From: a virus
Taxonomy: Duplodnaviria > Caudoviricetes
Virus record (IMG/VR): IMGVR_UViG_3300032116_000009
Reading direction: 5' to 3' (one strand)
DNA length: 64,000 nt
The notes beneath the pieces are model-generated. The model saw only the letters and a list, made by a program, of their open reading frames with translations. It was not told the DNA's origin and searched no databases. Below, piece after piece: positions 33,829 through 62,619 of the stretch (position 1 is the stretch's first letter; every line of letters starts with the position of its first letter). Made by a program: the position numbers and the translations under genes.

Positions 33829-35103
33829 TCATCTCTGTTCCAACCAGTTCATAATTGCAAGTGCTGCTTTGTTAGCGTTAGGTGAGGCACATACGAGAGT
33901 GTAAATATCACTAATTGTTCCAATACCACTTCTACCAACTTGTAGTTGTGCTTTGTCATCAATGACTATCTGACTTCCACCACCACCAACAACAAATCCA
34001 CTTAAAAGAACTCTTCCACCAGTGAAAGAAGTTGCAGTTGTATCATATTGAGTAATTGCATCTGGGTTTGCGTGATCAGTAAATGCTGCACCGACTAGAG
34101 TTGGGTTCTCAACTAGTCTCCAGAAGATGTTAGTATTATCATTAGTAGATACTTGAAGTGACCTTGGAATTACAACACCACTCAACATATTTGATTTAAG
34201 ACGAATACTAAGAACTGGATAATAAGTATTCGCAACAGACATCGTAGTTCCAGTAAGAGCATTGCCCTGACTGACAAGAGTTCCAAGTTTTTCTGGTTCT
34301 CCTTCCTGAATAAGAGAATTAGAACCCTGATAAAGGTAATGAGTTCCTGCAACACCAGTTACATTTTCAATTTCACAACGAATTGGTAGGAATGGAGTAG
34401 AACACCAAACATATGGATTGGTATTTGAGTTATCAAATGTATGACTATGAATTGTTTCATTCTTCATTAACCAATTAAACTGAACAATTCCTGCACCATA
34501 CCATTCATAGTTAATTGAAATCATTTGTTGTTTTGTTGGATCTGCAACAACACCTGTATATCCATCACCACCAAACTTTTCACCATTCCAATTATCTCTG
34601 GTTACTCTAGTTTCTGTAGTAATTCCAGATGTACTACTGCGAATTACATATGAATATGTTCCACCATCGTCCTCAAAGTATGCACCGTTATAGTCATCAA
34701 ACAGTCCAAATCTTCTGCGAATTCCTACCTTTGGTTCTTCAAGACGAATAGCAAATGCAAGAGTTGCACCCCTACCAGGAATGTATCTCATTACAGTCCT
34801 AGTTTGACGAATGACTTTACTCCCTGCAGTAGATCCAACTTGCATCACTACATTACTGGATGATGCGTTGTGATATGCAGTTCCAACTCCAACTATTCTT
34901 TCATCCCATACATCACTCTCTTTTCCGTACTGGAAAGTATTAAAGAAGACTGTTTGGTACGGAGCAACTTTAAGTCTGTTGTTATTAGAAAACTGAGGTC
35001 TCCAGTCTGTCTGGTTTCCCCAGTGATCTGCAATATTAAAAACTTCAAAGAGACTTCTCTCTTGATTTAGATAGTCCTGTTCATTCTTATTCCACTGAGC
35101 CAT
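33829..35103 (-). CDS. Putative virion structural protein
   Basis: 424-aa beta-rich ORF (YIPGR, YEWYGAG) in a late operon. Confidence 0.65.
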   Translation of the reverse strand: MAQWNKNEQDYLNQERSLFEVFNIADHWGNQTDWRPQFSNNNRLKVAPYQTVFFNTFQYGKESDVWDERIVGVGTAYHNASSSNVVMQVGSTAGSKVIRQTRTVMRYIPGRGATLAFAIRLEEPKVGIRRRFGLFDDYNGAYFEDDGGTYSYVIRSSTSGITTETRVTRDNWNGEKFGGDGYTGVVADPTKQQMISINYEWYGAGIVQFNWLMKNETIHSHTFDNSNTNPYVWCSTPFLPIRCEIENVTGVAGTHYLYQGSNSLIQEGEPEKLGTLVSQGNALTGTTMSVANTYYPVLSIRLKSNMLSGVVIPRSLQVSTNDNTNIFWRLVENPTLVGAAFTDHANPDAITQYDTTATSFTGGRVLLSGFVVGGGGSQIVIDDKAQLQVGRSGIGTISDIYTLVCASPNANKAALAIMNWLEQR

Positions 35104-35420
35104 TATTCACTCCAAGATAGTCTTTCTGGTTGATACCTCTGAGTATTCTTAATTTTTAAAGAACTTTGAGATTGTGATGGATAAATGTTATGAACGATTG
35201 CTCCAGGATACTCACTCTGAAGTTGTTCAGCGAGAGCGTTCTTATCCATCATAGAACCCTCTACTTCCAAACGATACATCTTTCCTTCCCAAACTACATC
35301 AGCAAAGAAAGACTCTCCTACTGGTTCTGATTGTGGTTCGGAACCATTGATATAAAGGTTTCCGTTGAAGTCACCAGCAATGTTAATTGCTTCCGATAAA
35401 AATTGATTGAATGATTTCAT
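35103..35420 (-). CDS. Putative internal head protein with CTS-like N-terminus
   Basis: MKSFNQFLSE resembles the T4 capsid-targeting sequence MKTYQEFIAE. Confidence 0.6.
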   Translation of the reverse strand: MKSFNQFLSEAINIAGDFNGNLYINGSEPQSEPVGESFFADVVWEGKMYRLEVEGSMMDKNALAEQLQSEYPGAIVHNIYPSQSQSSLKIKNTQRYQPERLSWSE

Positions 35421-37756
35421 TAGTTACAGTTCCAACGACGAAGGGCTTTGTTGATTCTTGAATCTGGATCTCGTGCAGTTTCTGCACTAGTTAGTCTCTT
35501 TTTCATACCTTCCATTCTGCGGCAAAAGGACTTACGGCGTTCAGCCCTTTTGCCCGCAGGCTTTTTTTCAGTTACTGCAGTCTGAAGTTTTGAACCTGGA
35601 TTTTCACGACGATAAGCATCTACAGCTTTCTGACTGAGACCATCGGTTTTATCTTTACGATTAACTGACTGCCAATCTTCCTTAACTCCAATCATCACAA
35701 TCGGATTTCTAACTCCAGCGGATCTCATCTTAGTTTTTGTTAGATTTACTTTAGTTGGTAAATCTCTCATATCCTTTTTTGGAGTTTCATTCTCTTTTTC
35801 GTCACATCCACAACCTTCACTCATGTTTGGATTGATTTGAATTTTATTTTTCTTTTTAGAAACATCAATTACTTTTTTTTTATCCGTTGCAGAGGAAAAA
35901 TCTTCTACTTCAAATAAAAAATCTTTTCTCCAATCATGGAGTTCTTCTTTTGTGACTTCTTTTTTATTTTGTTTGTTTAGTTCTCTTTTTGTCTTTGCAA
36001 TTTTAAATGCAGCTGCGCCCAATTGAACTCCACCTTTAACCATCTTACCAATATTACTTGCAACTTTAGTTGCAGCTGCACCTTCGGTATCTTTAGTAGA
36101 TATTTTTTGATATTCTGGTCTATCTACAGATTTTTTGGATGATTCAATTTTTTGTTCTAGTTCTCTTTTTCTATTTTTTTCTGCTTCCTTTTTCTTTTTT
36201 TCTAGAGCCTCAGCTTTTTTCTGAGCTCTCATTTTATCTTCCCTTTTAGTTCTTTCTTTTCTAGCTTCAGCTTTAGAAGCGGCCTTTTCTCTTTCAGTTT
36301 GTTGAAGAATTTTTGCAGCTTTTACTCTCGTGGCACCCCTAACTCTCTCAGCTCTTTCTACCCCAGTAACTTTTCGTTTACCTTTTTCTGGTTCTTCCTC
36401 AGTTTCTTTAGGCTTTTTTGATTTTTTATTGTCATCGTCTCCACGAATATCCGCAAGAAGATCGTCAAGTTTACCTTCACTTAATGGAGAAAATTCTAGG
36501 ATCATTCTATCAACTAAAGATAACTCTTCTTTAGTCTCCTCCTTTTTTTCAGGGAGTCCTGCATGTTTTGTCTTTGCAAAATCTCTTGCAGATTTCTTAG
36601 TCATTCCCTCTGCAGCCTTTGCAACCTCTGGAGAAGCAGGAGTTTCACCTTTCTTAGCAGCATAAACCATACCCATGAATCTCTGTTGAGCTCTACTTAG
36701 AGACTTCTCTGTAAGATATCCCTCACCCATTGCCTTCTGTTTACGAAGTTTCTTAGGATTCTTTGTCTTGTCTGCAGAGTAGTTATTATCATCCTCATTA
36801 TCAGGATCTACAGCACTACGATGTCTTGTGCGTCTTTCCTCATCATCCATGTTTGCACGACTTCTCTTTGCTTCATCTGGAGAATACTTTCTACCACTGT
36901 TGTACCATTCCTTACCTACATGACCTCTCTTCTCAGCATCAGCAGAAGCTTCTCTACGCTTATTCTTCTGACGATTTGCTTTGAAATCTTTCATGGTCAT
37001 ACCTTCTTCGATTTCAGTCTCTTCTTTTTTCACTCCTCTTCTCTCTTCATGTTCAGCTCTACGAGCCCTTTGTTGACCTCCACCTAATGCAAGGGCACCA
37101 CTTGGATTGTCATATCTTGCAAGTCTTGCTGCAGATCTCTTATGTTCTGGAAGTTTCTTATCTGCCTTACCTTCATCAACAAGGTCGCCTTCGGGTTCAT
37201 AAGATTGACGAAGTTGTTTCATTGCATCGTTAAGTGCATTGTTACGTTTTTGCATTCCATATGCAGCACCAGCAATACCTGTTCCAGGATTTTTAATCTG
37301 TTTTCCTTTATTTGCAGCATCTACTCCAGATTTCGCAGCATCTTTAGCTCTCTTAATTGCAGCACCAGCAGCAAGAGCTCCACCAAGAGCAAGTCCGCCA
37401 GCAATTAGTGGTGCAATCTCATCAATCTGTTCTACTTCTTCTTTCGCTTGAATAATCTTACTTCTTACCTTTCTGCGATTTAAAAGATATTTGTCAGTCT
37501 TATCATGATCTCCATCATTATCAATATCCTTATCTTCTTGACCAACAGCATCCAGTTGTTTCGCTTCTTCTACTTTCTTCTTCTTGTCTGCAGCAATGGC
37601 AGCTCCAACAGTAGCTCTCCTCTTCTTAAGATAACTATCAGAACTATCGGAATCACCATCATTATCCACATCGTCATCTTCATGACCAACTGGATCCAGT
37701 TTTTTAGCTGTTTTAGCTTCTGCAACAATACGTGAAAATTTTTCCCAACTAGACAT
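35420..37756 (-). CDS. Modular low-complexity protein, putative protease-processed internal head polyprotein; C-terminal RRKSFC..M domain (DUF6321-like)
   Basis: Successive basic modules separated by [ILV]xE junctions; two DxDNDGD motifs. Confidence 0.75.
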   Translation of the reverse strand: MSSWEKFSRIVAEAKTAKKLDPVGHEDDDVDNDGDSDSSDSYLKKRRATVGAAIAADKKKKVEEAKQLDAVGQEDKDIDNDGDHDKTDKYLLNRRKVRSKIIQAKEEVEQIDEIAPLIAGGLALGGALAAGAAIKRAKDAAKSGVDAANKGKQIKNPGTGIAGAAYGMQKRNNALNDAMKQLRQSYEPEGDLVDEGKADKKLPEHKRSAARLARYDNPSGALALGGGQQRARRAEHEERRGVKKEETEIEEGMTMKDFKANRQKNKRREASADAEKRGHVGKEWYNSGRKYSPDEAKRSRANMDDEERRTRHRSAVDPDNEDDNNYSADKTKNPKKLRKQKAMGEGYLTEKSLSRAQQRFMGMVYAAKKGETPASPEVAKAAEGMTKKSARDFAKTKHAGLPEKKEETKEELSLVDRMILEFSPLSEGKLDDLLADIRGDDDNKKSKKPKETEEEPEKGKRKVTGVERAERVRGATRVKAAKILQQTEREKAASKAEARKERTKREDKMRAQKKAEALEKKKKEAEKNRKRELEQKIESSKKSVDRPEYQKISTKDTEGAAATKVASNIGKMVKGGVQLGAAAFKIAKTKRELNKQNKKEVTKEELHDWRKDFLFEVEDFSSATDKKKVIDVSKKKNKIQINPNMSEGCGCDEKENETPKKDMRDLPTKVNLTKTKMRSAGVRNPIVMIGVKEDWQSVNRKDKTDGLSQKAVDAYRRENPGSKLQTAVTEKKPAGKRAERRKSFCRRMEGMKKRLTSAETARDPDSRINKALRRWNCN

Positions 37757-37781
37757 TTATCTGTAAAAAATACTGCTAGTT

Positions 37782-39044
37782 TTATTTATTCTTTTTGCCT
37801 CTACGAAACTTATCGTAAATAGATGCAATCTTAACACCGGTATAACTTTTAACTTCTTGTCCTGGAGTTAATGATTGGAGATACTCCCTATATTCATCTG
37901 TACCGATTTCATGGGGGTGTTCAGTGAGATCTTTTAACCAAGACTTGAACATAACTCCGTCTTCAGTTACACAAATGACATAGTTAGTTCCTCTACGAAT
38001 TACTTCACCTCTAAGGCCTGTATTCATATTTTCAACGATAGATCCAACTTCATAGATGTGATCAACTAGGTATGCATCTCTAAGACCCTCTTCATCAAAT
38101 TTAGGTGCAACTTCCCAAATTTCCGTCTGTTCATTAATTCCCATAGATCTACGAAGAACATTAAAAAGTTCCATCTTTTCAGTGTTACCCAGAGTATCAG
38201 GAACACCTTTCGCAAACTTTTTAAAGTCACCTTCTGCTGCAGCAAGACGAAGTTTTGAAGCAGACATTCCTGTTACATCATCAGAGTCTGGATCTCTTTC
38301 TCCTGCAGAAACTACTTCAAGTTGATCATAATTATAAAGTTCCCCATTATACTTATGACTCAAACCTTGAAACTCTCCGAGTCGGTCTTGGCCCACCATG
38401 ATGATCATATTATTATGACCTTCTTGATTTGCACCCGTCAATACATTAAAGATTGTTTTTGCTCCCTTGTCGTCAATAATACTATCTGCATAATCTGGGA
38501 ACATCTGACGCATATATGAAATCTTCATTTGTGGAGTCAAAGGATTTTTCTTAGCATCATGAGAACGAGAAGGATAAACTCTCAATTCATATCCTCTCTT
38601 ATCAGCTTCCTTTGCAGCACGATCTAAAAGTTTTTGATGACCAATTGTTGGTGGATTAAATCTACCAAACACCACAACAACTCCTGGAGTTTCTGGAACT
38701 GGTACTTCTGCAGGTTGTTCTTCTGTCGCTGGTGCAGATTGTTGTTCTGGTGAAACTTGTTGAGAATTTTGTGTCTGTTGTGGGGAGGGTTCTTGAACAA
38801 CAGACTGAGTTGCAGTCTGTTTAGATGAGATTGATTTAGTACTTGGTTGAGATGGGGAATCTTTTTGTCCTGGAATATTATCACTACCAAAGAACTTTAA
38901 TTTACCAGCCACAGTTTTTGCAACAAACTCACCATTTTTGTCATACCATCCGCCATGACCATCTCCGGTCAAACCAAGTCTCTTGGCTTCTGTAGATGCA
39001 GAAGTTTCTCTAGCTTCAGTGAGGAACTGCGTGAAATTCTTCAT
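37782..39044 (-). CDS. Cytidylyltransferase-like (HxGH nucleotidyltransferase) protein
   Basis: FGRFNPPTIGH...VGQDR...MSASKLR; N-terminus MKNFTQFLTE. Confidence 0.88.
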   Translation of the reverse strand: MKNFTQFLTEARETSASTEAKRLGLTGDGHGGWYDKNGEFVAKTVAGKLKFFGSDNIPGQKDSPSQPSTKSISSKQTATQSVVQEPSPQQTQNSQQVSPEQQSAPATEEQPAEVPVPETPGVVVVFGRFNPPTIGHQKLLDRAAKEADKRGYELRVYPSRSHDAKKNPLTPQMKISYMRQMFPDYADSIIDDKGAKTIFNVLTGANQEGHNNMIIMVGQDRLGEFQGLSHKYNGELYNYDQLEVVSAGERDPDSDDVTGMSASKLRLAAAEGDFKKFAKGVPDTLGNTEKMELFNVLRRSMGINEQTEIWEVAPKFDEEGLRDAYLVDHIYEVGSIVENMNTGLRGEVIRRGTNYVICVTEDGVMFKSWLKDLTEHPHEIGTDEYREYLQSLTPGQEVKSYTGVKIASIYDKFRRGKKNK

Positions 39045-39084
39045 TATTAATTGAGTTAGGATTCCTTAACCATAAAGGTATTTA

Positions 39085-40155
39085 TTATTTTTCCTTCGGT
39101 GCATAGGCCGCAGGACCGGCTTCAACATAGAATTTTAATTCTTTAATTTGAAAATCTTCCCCACTTCCTGCAACTCTTTTTTTAAATCTTAATTGAAACA
39201 ATTCCTTGTTTAATGGCTTAATAATAAATTTTAAATTATCTCCACTTTTTTGTACATCTATTGAGGATGTTTTTTGTTGAAGTTCATTTATATAATCAAC
39301 AGTAATTTCTTTTATTTTTGTTTTGTCAATATCAACAACATTAGCTAAATCCGAACCAAAAGTCATAGATTTAAATAGTTCAAAAGCCTGATCCTTAAAA
39401 GTAGAATTCCTAGAAGCATCTTCAAGAGATTCTAATGTCTCTTTATACAATTCTTTAATAGTGTCTACTTTTAATTTCTTTTCTAAAGGGGTTCTTGCTT
39501 GTGCAAGTTGTTCTCCTAATATTTTTCTATATTTTGTTTCATTTGGAAGTGAGACTCCGAATCTTTTTACAATGTCCATCATCCCATTAAAAGGACTAAG
39601 ATTAGCCAAAGTTTTACTTCCAGACTTTAAAGAAAAACTCAATGTTCTATCAAGTTGTTTCTTACCATTCATAGTTACGGAAACTTCCAAATCTCCCTTT
39701 ATATCTCCACCAGAAGATTCTCCAGCAATACCGTCAGCATTAATAACAATATCAACAGTATCAGATTTATTATTTTTAAGATAACTATCCTTAGTTCTTT
39801 TTATCAGATCTTGATAATGTGTTTTGGTAAAAGTAATTAAATTATCTATTTTTCTATCAATATTTCCTACATCTGAACTTTTTTCATAGAGTGGTGCATA
39901 GTTGGGTCCAAATGCCATATTCGTTGATTCATATTTTAATCTAATAATCAATGTAACTTTAATTTGATCCTGAGGACGACCATCTTTAAATTCTCTTACT
40001 ACTATTTCAGATCTACCATTCTTAAAAATACCAGGATCTATTTGTCTTCTCCACCTATTAACATTCGATTTATTAATCGTACCATTTGCAAACAATTCGG
40101 CAAGACAGATGGCAAATACGCCCTCCATCACATCTCCTTCATTTAATTTTGCCAT
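39085..40155 (-). CDS. Hypothetical protein, possible PD-(D/E)XK nuclease fold
   Basis: GDVMEG...KGDLEV...FSLK pattern; tentative. Confidence 0.45.
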   Translation of the reverse strand: MAKLNEGDVMEGVFAICLAELFANGTINKSNVNRWRRQIDPGIFKNGRSEIVVREFKDGRPQDQIKVTLIIRLKYESTNMAFGPNYAPLYEKSSDVGNIDRKIDNLITFTKTHYQDLIKRTKDSYLKNNKSDTVDIVINADGIAGESSGGDIKGDLEVSVTMNGKKQLDRTLSFSLKSGSKTLANLSPFNGMMDIVKRFGVSLPNETKYRKILGEQLAQARTPLEKKLKVDTIKELYKETLESLEDASRNSTFKDQAFELFKSMTFGSDLANVVDIDKTKIKEITVDYINELQQKTSSIDVQKSGDNLKFIIKPLNKELFQLRFKKRVAGSGEDFQIKELKFYVEAGPAAYAPKEK

Positions 40156-40162
40156 AGGTACT

Positions 40163-40193
40163 AAAAAACCCTTCCAAATATTTATGGAAGGGT
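40163..40193 (-). terminator. Terminator with a late promoter (ATAAATA) in its loop
   Basis: ACCCTTCCA-TAAATATT-TGGAAGGGT followed by a T-run. Confidence 0.75.
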
Positions 40194-58596: not shown

Positions 58597-58618
58597 AAAA
58601 AAGAGGGGTTTCCCCCTC
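58597..58618 (-). terminator. Rho-independent terminator
   Basis: GAGGGG-GAAA-CCCCTC followed by a T-run. Confidence 0.85.
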
Positions 58619-60827
58619 AAGCAACAAGATCAATAAACTCACCAAGAATTTTTTTATTCATCTTCTTACTCTTTAGAGACTTTGCGAATGCAGATTTAAT
58701 TTGGGATTTTGTTGCACATTCATGAACATCAAACTCAGAATCTTGAGAAAGTGCCGAACCAGAAAGGCCAAAGTAAGAATGATAACCAGAATTTTTAATT
58801 GAAAAAGATTTATTCTTTTTCCAATCATTCATGATTTTTACATATTCTTTATTGTCTTGAGCATAACCAGAACTATATTCATAATTATCGTAATACTTAC
58901 GAATGAAAGAATTAGCTTCACGATTTTCAAGAACCCGCATACCAATAAAATTCACAGAAGGAAAACGATCACGAAGGTTCTGAAGAAGAGTGTCCGTAAA
59001 TTGATGAAATTCAAATGGTACTTTATAAGTACAGCCAGTTTTACGATCACGAATGAAAGTAGGGTGACTATTAAGAGAGTTCAATCCAATATAAGGTTCT
59101 CCACCATCAACAGAACGATTTTTAAACTCTTTGTGAAACTTCATATAACAAGCTTCACCATCGGTTAAAACTACACATTGAACTTTCTGGAGTTTATTTT
59201 CCTTTTGAAACTTAGGCAAAATTTGATGCATTGCAATCAAAGCTTCATTCAAAGGAGTTCCAGAAAGAAGTAGTCTAGTCGGAGTATTATACATTGGAGC
59301 ATCATTATAAGAATACTTAAATTCTTTAGCAATGCGATAAATGTTAATCATTTGTTCTTCCAGAACACGATTATTTACTTTACTAGTAAAAAGATTCATC
59401 ATGGAAAATGTTTCATCTACACAGATGAGTCCAGATTTCTTTTGATAGTGTGGTTCCATCCTCATAAAGTTTCCCTTTTCGTCATATGTACTACGACGCC
59501 ACTCATTAGTAAATGCATAAACTTCGAAGGGAATAGAAACCTTCTTACAGAACCAAATCAAATTATAAAGTTGTTTGATTGTATCCTGCATCACATTTGA
59601 CATTGAGCCAGACCAGTCCAGGACAAACACTAGGCCATGATTTTTTCCGTTTGCAAGAGTGGTTACCTTACGGAACAAATCTTCATTATACTTATAAGTA
59701 TGAAGTTTAGAACAATCTAGAACACCAGTACGAGCAGTAGTGGAACGAGCGTATGAATCTGCAGCTTTCCGACATTCAAACTCTTTCACCAAGTAGTTAA
59801 CTTCTTTCTGAGCAGAACGTTTGAACTCTCGAAAATCTTTATCAATTTTTCCAAACAAAAATTCCTTAGCATTAGATTGACTCTTACTAAGAGATTCTAC
59901 TGATTTGTTCCACCAATCATTAATTTCATCATGAACTTCAGAATTAGATGCAATGACAGTTTCTAGATTAAGTTTGGGAAGTTCCACATAAACATTTTCA
60001 TACGAAGAGCTGTTGACAAGATCTCGAATAGATTCTTCCAAATTATCTGCAGTATGGACTTTAGGATCAGAAGTCTCTCCACCCTGATTTGAAGTTCCCT
60101 TAGAAGGTTGATCAATATCATCCCCCGATTCACCATCAGAAGGAGTCTGGCCACCTTCACCAGAGGTTTCAAGTGTATTCTGATCCGAATATTCTTCTTG
60201 GGGTTCTGAGGAAGGTTCTGAACTGTTTCCAGAATTTTGTTCCACTGTATCAATAGAATCAATCTTCATTTGTTGATCCTGTTCTTTCTTGCAGTACTCA
60301 TAAAGTTTTACCGCAGCTTGAATCGCTTCATCAAAAGTTTCTGCATCACCAATCATAGTGATGATTTCTTGTTCTTCCTGATTAAACTGTATATCAATGT
60401 AGTTACCAATCTTAAAGTAAAGATTGGCACGATCTGCAAGATTAAACTTAGAAATATCTTCTTCCTTTACTTGGAAAAAATCATCCTCGTGAAGTTCACG
60501 ATAACCCGCATAAAAACACTTATTGAGACCCGCATACCTACGTTTCATCAACTTTTCAATACGAGCATCTTCCGTAACATTCACAAATTGTTGTGGGATG
60601 GAAAACTTTTCACTCCAGTCCTCGTTAGGAGTATAAAGTGCATGACCCACTTCATGACCAACAAGCATATCGTAGACAACGTTAGAAGCCTTCTCCCACA
60701 TCGGGAGAATCAGGACACGAGTATCCACATTGAAAGACGCAGTGGGAACGTGTTTGTGTTCCACCACCAGATCTTCAGTAGCGAGGAGACGGGCAAGATG
60801 ACCTTTGACTTCGTGATTAACAGACAT
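58617..60827 (-). CDS. Metallopeptidase-like domain plus vWA (CobT-like) protein
   Basis: HEVGH (HExxH), EDARIE, VLDWSGSM MIDAS motif, SGTPL, VLTDGE. Confidence 0.88.
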   Translation of the reverse strand: MSVNHEVKGHLARLLATEDLVVEHKHVPTASFNVDTRVLILPMWEKASNVVYDMLVGHEVGHALYTPNEDWSEKFSIPQQFVNVTEDARIEKLMKRRYAGLNKCFYAGYRELHEDDFFQVKEEDISKFNLADRANLYFKIGNYIDIQFNQEEQEIITMIGDAETFDEAIQAAVKLYEYCKKEQDQQMKIDSIDTVEQNSGNSSEPSSEPQEEYSDQNTLETSGEGGQTPSDGESGDDIDQPSKGTSNQGGETSDPKVHTADNLEESIRDLVNSSSYENVYVELPKLNLETVIASNSEVHDEINDWWNKSVESLSKSQSNAKEFLFGKIDKDFREFKRSAQKEVNYLVKEFECRKAADSYARSTTARTGVLDCSKLHTYKYNEDLFRKVTTLANGKNHGLVFVLDWSGSMSNVMQDTIKQLYNLIWFCKKVSIPFEVYAFTNEWRRSTYDEKGNFMRMEPHYQKKSGLICVDETFSMMNLFTSKVNNRVLEEQMINIYRIAKEFKYSYNDAPMYNTPTRLLLSGTPLNEALIAMHQILPKFQKENKLQKVQCVVLTDGEACYMKFHKEFKNRSVDGGEPYIGLNSLNSHPTFIRDRKTGCTYKVPFEFHQFTDTLLQNLRDRFPSVNFIGMRVLENREANSFIRKYYDNYEYSSGYAQDNKEYVKIMNDWKKNKSFSIKNSGYHSYFGLSGSALSQDSEFDVHECATKSQIKSAFAKSLKSKKMNKKILGEFIDLVA

Positions 60828-60849
60828 GAACTTTGTTTCGTATGTGGCT

Positions 60850-60908
60850 ATATTACATGAAAAAAGGGGTCTGATTAGACCCCTTGTGACACTTTTTAAA
60901 CTGTCACA
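60850..60908 (-). promoter_or_regulatory. Palindrome-associated promoter of the peptidase-vWA gene (its spacer also forms the gp46 terminator)
   Basis: TGTGACAGTTTAAAAAGTGTCACA, then 29 nt, then TAATAT. Confidence 0.6.
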
Positions 60909-62619
60909 CCATTTTACTAAATCCTTTAATTTTATCAAATTTTATCACTTTTTCAAACTTATCCATAAGATCATCCGTCTTATGTGAAATCACAAATACA
61001 TGAGCATCCTGAATGACATAACGAATAATATTTGTGAAGAAATCTGTTCCTGCTCCGTCTAAAGAACTATCAAAAATTTCATCTAGGATGAGAAGATTTG
61101 TACTGGCCGAATTTCTAAGTTTGGCAATGTCTCTCCAAGTAAATAAGAGAGAAAGGTCAATACGCATCTTCTCACCTTCACTAAATGACTCATAACTAAA
61201 ATCTTCATGAACTGGTGACTTAATAACCTCCTTAAACTCTTCATCCAGTGTAAAGTTGATGTAGAAGTCCATCATCTGTAGATACTTGTTTATCTGCTGA
61301 TTCATAAGAGGCAGATACTTTTTGATGATTTTAGACTTCACTCCACCATCTTTCATCAATGAATGAGCAAAATCGTAGTAACTAATCTGTTCCTTTTCGT
61401 TAGATCTATCTTTTTCTATTTTGTCTAGATCTTTTATTAAGTTTTCAAGGGTTTTACGCTCAGTATTTCTGTTTTGAATTTGTTCGGTAATTTCTTGAAT
61501 TTCATGTCCAAGATTTCTGATCTGTTTGTTAAGCCCAGTAATCTTAACATTGTTTGTGGTAATGTCATTGTTGAGTTTACTAATCTCCGTAGAATAAGAT
61601 AAAAATTGTTGGTCTTTCTCTTGTTCTACATTGATGGCATCCTCCAACTCTCGGTATCCATCATTGAGTTCTTTGGATTTCTCCTCGATATCGACAATCT
61701 TATTTAAGCGAAATTCATTCTCTATACTTTGGGTACAAGTAGGACAAACCGTATTTTCCTGAAAAAACTTATGTTCAGAGACAAGAGTTTGAATCTTTTG
61801 TTCTAGTTTTGCCTTGATAGAATTAAGTTTCTTTAGAGTTGAATTTGTACTAGTAAGTTCTTCCAACTTTGGTTGAAGTTCTTTTTCAATCATCATTGAA
61901 ATTCCTTCATTATCAGTATTCAATTCATCAATTTCATTCTCAATAAATTTAATACTATCTTTTTTCTTTTGGATTCTTTCTTTACCACTTTCATCAAGAT
62001 TCTTAATAAAGTTCTCTTGCATTTCAATCTTATCTTCAATCATGTCTTTCTTGATTGAATATTCACGAATGAGTTCATTTGTTTTACGCATTCGTTCTTT
62101 TAAGATATTGTTCATTGTAGAAAAAATCTTAATGTCTAAAAGATCTTCTACAATTTCCCTACGATGGGAAGAAGTTAATTGCATAAAAGGGACGAATGTA
62201 GCCGAACCTAAGATGACTGTTTGGGTGAAAGATTTATAATTAAGTTTTAAAATATTTTCTTCTAACTTTTTCTGCTGATCTTGAGCTGCAGAGTCTTGAT
62301 TTTGTATTGTCCCGTCAATCCAAATTTCAAAAATATTTGGTTTGATACCTCTCACAACTTTATAATTTTTATTACCAATATCAAATTCAATTTCTACAAG
62401 ACAGTCCTTCTCATTCACAGAATTAATAAGTTGTGGTTTATTAATTTTTCTGAATGGTTTATTATACAAAACAAAAGTAAGAGCATCAAGAATTGTACTC
62501 TTACCGGAACCATTAGTTCCTACAATTAAGTTTGTCTTAGCGTCTTGAAAATTTACTTCGGTAAATTGATTTCCAGTAGAAAGAAAGTTACGCCAACGAA
62601 TCGTTTTGAAAAGTATCAT
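60904..62619 (-). CDS. Recombination endonuclease ATPase subunit (gp46, SbcC/Rad50-like)
   Basis: GTNGSGKS, CPTC zinc hook, FSEGEK, LILDE, VISH. Confidence 0.96.
   Translation of the reverse strand: MILFKTIRWRNFLSTGNQFTEVNFQDAKTNLIVGTNGSGKSTILDALTFVLYNKPFRKINKPQLINSVNEKDCLVEIEFDIGNKNYKVVRGIKPNIFEIWIDGTIQNQDSAAQDQQKKLEENILKLNYKSFTQTVILGSATFVPFMQLTSSHRREIVEDLLDIKIFSTMNNILKERMRKTNELIREYSIKKDMIEDKIEMQENFIKNLDESGKERIQKKKDSIKFIENEIDELNTDNEGISMMIEKELQPKLEELTSTNSTLKKLNSIKAKLEQKIQTLVSEHKFFQENTVCPTCTQSIENEFRLNKIVDIEEKSKELNDGYRELEDAINVEQEKDQQFLSYSTEISKLNNDITTNNVKITGLNKQIRNLGHEIQEITEQIQNRNTERKTLENLIKDLDKIEKDRSNEKEQISYYDFAHSLMKDGGVKSKIIKKYLPLMNQQINKYLQMMDFYINFTLDEEFKEVIKSPVHEDFSYESFSEGEKMRIDLSLLFTWRDIAKLRNSASTNLLILDEIFDSSLDGAGTDFFTNIIRYVIQDAHVFVISHKTDDLMDKFEKVIKFDKIKGFSKMV

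Follow-up and report, generated by a model that had tools for sequence, protein, structure and literature searches.

A mosaic protein of a T4-like cyanophage as a candidate capsid-loaded polyprotein with prohead-protease-type motifs at its module borders

Few viruses of the ocean are as abundant as the T4-like cyanophages, most of whose variable genes, including those of the 'hyperplastic' region between gp16 and gp17, have no assigned role. What such a gene may be for is the question raised by an open reading frame (ORF) at 35420-37756, on the minus strand, of a 64-kb stretch of viral DNA (IMG/VR record IMGVR_UViG_3300032116_000009; the whole stretch is called the window here). Its product, designated P0001, has 778 amino acids (plus stop), a mass of 87 kDa and an isoelectric point (pI) of 9.7; Lys, Ala, Glu, Arg and Asp residues are abundant. 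Fifteen PHROG families match P0001, each on a different segment, so that the protein is objectively a mosaic. The window also encodes a family-B DNA polymerase, UvsX, a gp41-type helicase, a primase, both ribonucleotide reductase subunits and gp46-like proteins. It is T4-like cyanomyovirus DNA, and the isolates nearest to it belong to the Kyanoviridae. A first interpretation, made from the letters alone (the sequence-only reading), had proposed that P0001 is processed by a head protease of the T4 gp21 type into about eight peptides. On comparative grounds, we consider it probable that P0001 is a late polyprotein that is loaded into the capsid and cut by gp21 into a leader, a spacer and nine products.

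Where do the units of P0001 begin and end? The sequence-only reading placed eight borders directly after the motif [ILV]-x-E. All eight junction strings are present, at 13/14, 64/65, 113/114, 195/196, 251/252, 350/351, 427/428 and 693/694 (a slash marks the joint), and the cargoes that it listed, namely two DxDNDGD units, a Gly/Ala hydrophobic stretch, several basic units and a C-terminal RRKSFC domain, were confirmed. The modular organization that it described stands, while the count of about eight does not: the number of modules is closer to 9-11, and two more conserved joints are found at 421/422 (MILE/F) and 616/617 (FLFE/V). The motif is not enriched in P0001 as such (13 occurrences against 10.0 ± 2.8 in shuffled sequences, p = 0.18). 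Since this count is not above chance, it is no evidence in itself, and the positions of the motif alone are informative. In a test set in advance, of xE sites against module borders, placement of the motif at the borders proved strongly non-random.

Placement was followed in 240 related loci, retrieved with a 424-amino-acid protein encoded nearby and two P0001 modules as queries, and in a global search of 1.84 billion cluster representatives that gave 2929 matches to one of the modules, of which the best 150 were analysed. This module (residues 351-421, 36494..36706, minus strand as for all P0001 coordinates; it ends I-L-E) is called DUF3008-like, as the Pfam family DUF3008 (PF11450) matches residues 354-405 at 22.4 bits, under the Pfam cut-off of 24; its homology is solid (phrog_10538 at 2.5e-24; the 2929 representatives at E <= 0.001). 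On viral contigs, [I/L/V]-x-E immediately precedes the module in 49 of 49 distinct internal contexts. In the 10 contexts in which the module opens the protein, its first residues are M-P-A, and the Met falls on the position of the joint Glu. Among the best 150 of the 2929 representatives, the motif stands before the module in 111 of the 112 internal cases, a further 17 being N-terminal. When pooled, these data give the motif in 142 of 143 distinct internal contexts, with at least 13 unrelated upstream groups under a deliberately conservative clustering. P1 before this module is always Glu and never Asp, P3 in the 111 global internal motifs is Leu (50), Ile (43) or Val (18), and P2 and P4 are free, which argues that the joint is a recognition site and not a structural residue.

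The last point bears on whether P0001 is cut at all. It could be an uncleaved, modular and disordered virion protein in which [ILV]-x-E is a structural or docking element, such as a helix end or a scaffold-binding motif. The AlphaFold model of the whole protein (16 orthologues), with helices between low-confidence stretches and a mean predicted local distance difference test score (pLDDT) of 48.8, is mostly disordered or helical and would suit such a protein, and virion mass spectrometry of relatives does not separate intact from cut chains. A structural element would, however, accept Asp in place of Glu at P1, and hydrophobic residues besides Leu, Ile and Val at P3, yet P1 is Glu in all but one of the 143 contexts and P3 is limited to those three in every one of the global internal motifs. 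The motif is, moreover, dispensable where the module is N-terminal, and it matches the experimentally defined specificity of gp21 (PMC9026906). We regard an uncleaved protein as rather unlikely.

Other modules behave similarly to the DUF3008-like one. The motif [ILV]-x-E stands before the GMTMKDFK module in each of its 15 contexts, and before the IAPL hydrophobic module wherever this occurs. For the C-terminal domain DUF6321, a Glu lies within 6 residues of the conserved Trp in all 58 contexts, and P3 is Ile, Leu or Val in 52% of these, against a background of 13.5%. A further test took all cases in which the start Met of one protein aligns inside another protein: in 63 of these 285 (22%) the start Met coincided with the Glu of an [ILV]-x-E motif, whereas at other offsets the figure was about 1.3%. 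Counted over 153 non-redundant members, the family has 1269 motifs, where its composition would predict 901. Ten joints of P0001 are conserved in up to 21 orthologues: where the orthologues align, sites 13, 64, 113, 195, 251, 350, 421, 427 and 616 are kept in 93-100%, P3 swapping among Ile, Leu and Val and P2 being variable. Site 693 aligns poorly (3 of 11 orthologues); for its Glu the support comes from the contexts counted for DUF6321. Neither site 202, which orthologues do not keep, nor site 728 is a junction, and site 401 (LPE) is conserved, yet lies inside the DUF3008-like domain.

Do the modules move as units? Whether they shuffle among cyanophage ORFs, with breakpoints at xE, was a check named in the original proposal, and changes of order and replacements in orthologues show that they do, as real evolutionary units and with breakpoints exactly after [ILV]-x-E. 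In S-SZBM1_194 the DUF3008-like module is followed by GMTLKDFK, an order opposite to that in P0001, and the same protein also holds modules found in the second mosaic gene of the window, P0002. In close orthologues of P0001, replacement modules start directly after LVDE or FVEE, YLTE or TIEE, and QIDE or NIQE. The upstream modules FLQVE/, NIGVIGE/ and SNWRxELxE/ are common to both DUF6321 subtypes, which places the joint exactly at the Glu.

Which protease might recognize these joints? In T4, gp21 cuts after Glu in L/I-x-E, and the internal proteins carry a 10-residue leader, MKTYQEFIAE, that targets them to the prohead and is later removed (PMC9026906; PMC8442874). Asp at the position equivalent to the P1 Glu blocks processing in T4 (PMC9026906). 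The sequence-only reading had equated the breakpoint motif with that of T4 gp21, and the [ILV]-x-E profile does fit the published specificity (PMC9026906). Among T4-like cyanophages the gp21 gene belongs to the core set (PMC3037559). A Peptidase_S77 of the gp21 type (E 3e-39) is encoded by a complete relative of 248.8 kb that carries a P0001 orthologue, and the gp23 of this relative has FLGE/A aligned to the T4 cleavage site FLTE65/A, so that the protease and its specificity are plausibly conserved in the lineage. The DUF3008-like matches in isolate phages all come from cyanomyoviruses of about 170-245 kb, and hence no protease-free lineage is available as a negative control.

How P0001 might enter the prohead is suggested by its N-terminus. 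A capsid-targeting sequence was taken to be a leader of about 10 residues like MKTYQEFIAE, in which residues 4 and 7 are key to targeting and residues 8 and 10 to processing. The P0001 leader MSSWEKFSRIVAE (residues 1-13, 37718..37756) is predicted to be helical (AlphaFold places the N-terminal helix at residues 2-16), has Trp4 and Phe7, ends V-A-E before an Ala, and is found in 21 of 21 orthologues; its sequence suggests a capsid-targeting sequence of the T4 kind in diverged form. The genes on either side of P0001 begin with MKSFNQFLSEA and MKNFTQFLTEA, which are far closer than the P0001 leader to the MKTYQEFIAEA of T4 IPII and IPIII (T4 record). In the retrieved loci, T4-type leaders number 153, and in 149 cases the leader is at the first Met of its frame. 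Similar strings are also found inside proteins, right before modules (ITYSKFMTE/, KSFSQFME/ and ITYREFIAE/), which suggests interconversion between stand-alone leader-tagged genes and internal modules.

Is P0001 then a protein of the virion? Support for a place in the virion comes from two relatives, T4-GC119 of S-SM1 and ORF92 of S-SCSM1, which were found in purified virions. T4-GC119 of S-SM1 (gene 115, whose DUF6321 C-terminus we verified) gave 13 peptide counts (PMC3037559, Table S8), and S-SCSM1 ORF92 is annotated as 'virion protein' from mass spectrometry (PMC9602691). ORF92 lies directly after the NMNAT gene, syntenic with P0001, and the two have LDPVG and SNWR modules in common. P0001 is also the first gene of a three-gene cassette, recurrent in 80 IMG/VR loci, that consists of a P0001-type mosaic protein, a protein of about 105 amino acids (phrog_1742; here 35103..35420, minus strand, the one starting MKSFNQFLSEA) and a virion structural protein of 424 amino acids (phrog_1645; 33829..35103, minus strand). 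The 424-amino-acid protein has been detected in S-SZBM1 virions (PMC9146016). Upstream of P0001 lies an NMNAT/cytidylyltransferase-like gene (37782..39044, minus strand, starting MKNFTQFLTEA). Its orthologues (46% identity) have been detected in virions of S-SM1 (PMC3037559, Table S8), S-SZBM1 (PMC9146016) and S-SCSM1 (PMC9602691), and a related NMNAT in those of S-CBWM1, as cited by PMC9602691. The T4-type leader on this gene would explain the repeated detection of the nucleotidyltransferase in virions.

The surroundings of the cassette can be read in two ways. In the isolates DSL-LC02, S-RIM2 and S-SZBM1 it lies between terS and terL, in the head/packaging module, whereas the closest relative of the window (L051) and the window itself have it directly after the NMNAT/cytidylyltransferase-like gene, among replication genes (33829-39044, minus strand). 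The cassette has thus moved as a block. A position among replication genes, together with the basic nature of the units, would fit a protein that is absent from the virion and acts in the infected cell, for example by binding nucleic acids, any cutting being the work of another protease. The cassette that P0001 heads has, however, a proven virion protein as its third gene and sits in the head/packaging module of isolates, and the relatives were detected in CsCl-purified virions. A late-promoter-like sequence upstream of P0001 points the same way: ATAAATA at 37783-37789 (minus strand) lies 26 nucleotides 5' of the ATG, overlapping the stop codon of the upstream gene, and is one of three (with 39079-39085 and 40179-40185, minus strand) that stand 23-35 nucleotides upstream of three consecutive gene starts. 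Its resemblance to a T4-type late promoter is suggestive only, because the window as a whole contains 17 copies of ATAAATA, no more than expected by chance (19.9). A role outside the virion seems to us very unlikely.

A head protein that is cut by gp21 need not be cargo. P0001 could be an accessory scaffold or core protein, the fragments of which leave the capsid before DNA packaging, as do those of gp22, gp67 and gp68. It has the cleavage motif and acidic joint contexts in common with these three T4 proteins, its AlphaFold model is mostly helical or disordered with one confident, coiled-coil-like long helix (residues 465-544), and homologues went undetected in S-SZBM1 and Syn9 virions. P0001 lacks, however, the high density of gp21 sites that is typical of scaffolds: it has 13 motifs in 778 residues (1.7 per 100), against 20 in the 269 residues of T4 gp22 (7.4 per 100). 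The sites lie at module borders and spare conserved units of 50-190 amino acids, and their density, about a quarter of that in gp22, favours cargo units over a degraded scaffold. Some of the units are, in addition, conserved as domains (DUF3008-like and DUF6321) that also occur as stand-alone genes, and relatives are present in mature S-SM1 and S-SCSM1 virions. We judge a scaffold role unlikely, yet take it seriously as a rival.

Several observations weigh against a capsid-loaded polyprotein. An unbiased, all-against-all BLAST boundary test gives just about 2-fold enrichment of the motif; it was replaced by the Met-aligned test because alignment ends are fuzzy in K/E-rich sequence. The contexts share descent, so the counts overstate their independence. 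The LDPVG/DxDNDGD units carry the motif loosely: their joint is often KE/A or VEE/A, sometimes with a hydrophobic P4 instead of P3, and one subfamily has no Glu before them. Three extra residues ahead of V-A-E set the leader of P0001 apart from the T4 signal, and a leader of this type is missing from many members of the family, for example from those that start MSWSDKYK.... The gene for gp21 is not within the 64-kb window. S-SZBM1_194, the homologue nearest to P0001 among isolates, is missing from the 30 virion proteins reported for S-SZBM1 (PMC9146016), and T4-GC119 was not detected in Syn9 virions (PMC3037559); both non-detections are weak evidence, because Lys/Arg-rich proteins yield few usable tryptic peptides. 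For no member of the family has a cleavage product, an N-terminus or a semi-specific peptide been observed.

What would cutting at the conserved joints release? After the leader come two DxDNDGD units, the first an acidic LDPVG/DxDNDGD unit with a basic tail (residues 14-64, 37565..37717; phrog_4359 and phrog_38880) that ends V-E-E, the second of the LDAVG type (residues 65-113, 37418..37564) and ending I-D-E. The next unit (residues 114-195, 37172..37417) opens with a Gly/Ala hydrophobic helix (IAPLIAGGLALGG...), continues with an amphipathic helix and ends V-D-E; its hydrophobic stretch spans residues 114-132, with a Kyte-Doolittle maximum of 1.75. A phage-specific basic unit (residues 196-251, 37004..37171), in place of which orthologues have other modules, ends I-E-E and is followed by the basic GMTMKDFK...KNPKKLRKQKAMGE module (residues 252-350, 36707..37003), which ends L-T-E before the DUF3008-like module. 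Beyond the latter, the hexapeptide FSPLSE (residues 422-427, 36476..36493) is flanked by two conserved sites. A K/E/R/A-rich unit (residues 428-616, 35909..36475) contains the long helix and ends with an SNWR-type junction, L-F-E, and a basic unit with NPNMSE/GCGC inside it (residues 617-693, 35678..35908) ends V-K-E. The C-terminal domain (RRKSFC...RRWNCN; residues 694-778, 35423..35677) matches Pfam DUF6321 (PF19846) over residues 701-775 at 54.4 bits (cut-off 28.5; E 2e-14), and in a protein atlas search the DUF6321 clusters were 96-100% viral. AlphaFold of DUF6321 alone (51 sequences) reached a mean pLDDT of 60.9. The predicted structures are too poor for a fold search, so no function is assigned to the modules.

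Some other ORFs of the window and of the related loci contain similar units. P0002 (57280-58620, minus strand; 446 amino acids) is a second mosaic protein, which shares the KNPKKLRKQKAMGE unit with P0001 and has AEGSYG modules after QLDE/ and DIYE/ and another unit after EIIE/; in S-SZBM1, modules of P0002 are fused into a P0001-type gene. P0003 (11870-12691, minus strand; 273 amino acids), with no PHROG or Pfam match, contains an extended repeat of Pro, Ala and Lys (PAAAPAPKP...) and, at its C-terminus, an LLDEGYA...MSEEW unit that P0002 also has. P0002 is adjoined by a protein of 773 amino acids (58617-60938, minus strand), considered as a candidate dedicated protease, that matches phrog_459, 'peptidase', at E 3e-269 but has no Pfam match. 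Loci L014-L016 (e.g., L015:1633-1788) contain a stand-alone ORF of 51 amino acids starting MKTFKQFQEE/WSNKYKKSIDC, the Cys-pair unit of which is the N-terminus of many mosaic proteins (MSWSDKYKRSIDC); from its sequence this ORF looks like a leader-tagged single module. Upstream of the nucleotidyltransferase gene, a 356-amino-acid ORF (39085-40155, minus strand) gave no Pfam or PHROG match; it was compared with the S-SCSM1 virion protein ORF90, which has the same position, and is unrelated to it (E 0.075).

The following sequence of events can be envisaged for a capsid-loaded polyprotein. P0001 would be made late, as a largely disordered and helical precursor of 87 kDa, and would be taken up into the assembling prohead core through its capsid-targeting-like N-terminal helix, an affinity for the scaffold, or both. 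The gp21-type prohead protease (Peptidase S77) would then cut after the Glu of [L/I/V]-x-E at about 10 joints, which would release the 13-residue leader, the 6-residue spacer and nine products of 5.5-21.6 kDa: two acidic DxDNDGD products, one with the Gly/Ala hydrophobic helix, and six basic ones that include the DUF3008-like and DUF6321 units. By computed pI, seven of the nine predicted products are basic (9.4-10.6) and two acidic. Afterwards the products would most likely be retained beside the DNA, in the manner of the T4 internal proteins. We infer each of these steps, from targeting and cutting to retention in the head and any delivery to the host, and a role of the products as injected effectors is speculative. 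As each unit is delimited by a cut site, units could be added, dropped or reordered by recombination without harm to the others, which would account for the family's extremely mosaic make-up.

If P0001 is such a polyprotein, hundreds to thousands of mosaic proteins now called 'hypothetical' would form one class (the DUF3008-like module alone has 2929 representatives), for which there would be a simple, testable rule: a cut after [L/I/V]-x-Glu. The capsid-targeting and protease logic of T4 would extend to a distant phage lineage, the recurrent nucleotidyltransferase of virion proteomes would be accounted for, and candidates would be at hand for proteins that reach the host ahead of phage gene expression. 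A wider reading, which we put forward tentatively and hold to be doubtful, is that T4-like cyanophages, and probably further marine T4-like phages, possess a combinatorial capsid-cargo system: dozens of small modules, joined into polyproteins at protease sites and loaded into the prohead, would be cut apart by gp21 and delivered with the DNA as effectors of the first minutes of infection. The cut sites would double as safe recombination joints, and the cargo set would thereby be highly evolvable. It is likewise possible, though on balance we would not expect it, that the pool in such a system comprises basic DNA-binding-like modules, acidic Ca-binding-like modules and a Gly-zipper membrane helix, beside leader-tagged NMNAT-like enzymes.

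How does P0001 compare with systems already described? Through its C-terminal DUF6321 it belongs to the family of T4-GC119 (Sullivan et al., 2010; PMC3037559), phrog_4689, phrog_727 and phrog_3477, which the literature describes as hypothetical or structural proteins. T4-GC119 is of hypervariable length, 276-2985 nucleotides (PMC3037559). In isolates it lies in the gp16-gp17 hyperplastic region, whereas P0001 has another set of modules and lies beside a nucleotidyltransferase gene. Our literature search brought up no paper that deals with DUF6321, with capsid targeting in cyanophages or with their internal proteins, and none that describes capsid-targeting leaders, modules, cut sites or protease-delimited polyproteins in these phages. 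With the inner-body or ejection proteins of phiKZ-type phages, such as SPN3US gp53 and gp54, P0001 would share a location inside the head, cleavage after Glu at a short motif, a protease related to gp21 (there a diverged homologue) and multiple cuts, which in those proteins fall in the long propeptides (PMC10052503). The cuts in phiKZ and SPN3US, however, remove N-terminal propeptides and leave one mature fragment, and both motif and lineage are different (PMC10052503). T4 gp22, gp67 and gp68 are, like P0001, charged and helical with many L/I-x-E sites, but they are cut to small peptides that mostly leave the head, whereas the sites of P0001 are sparser and lie at the borders of conserved domains.

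The closest parallel is with the internal proteins of T4, namely IPI, IPII and IPIII, and with Alt. Here too the predicted products are mostly small and basic, and the leader ends in a hydrophobic residue-x-Glu followed by Ala. The L/I-x-E motif, late expression (for P0001, a predicted trait) and high variability between related phages are further points of likeness, and the genes that flank P0001 carry leaders nearly identical to those of T4. In sequence, P0001 is not similar to the internal proteins of T4 in their mature form, and its own leader differs by the insertion. The T4 proteins are encoded by separate genes and cut once, whereas P0001 fuses about ten unrelated units, each with its own site and open to shuffling. 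By this comparison, P0001 appears to be a variant of the T4 internal-protein system in which many unrelated units are carried by a single ORF.

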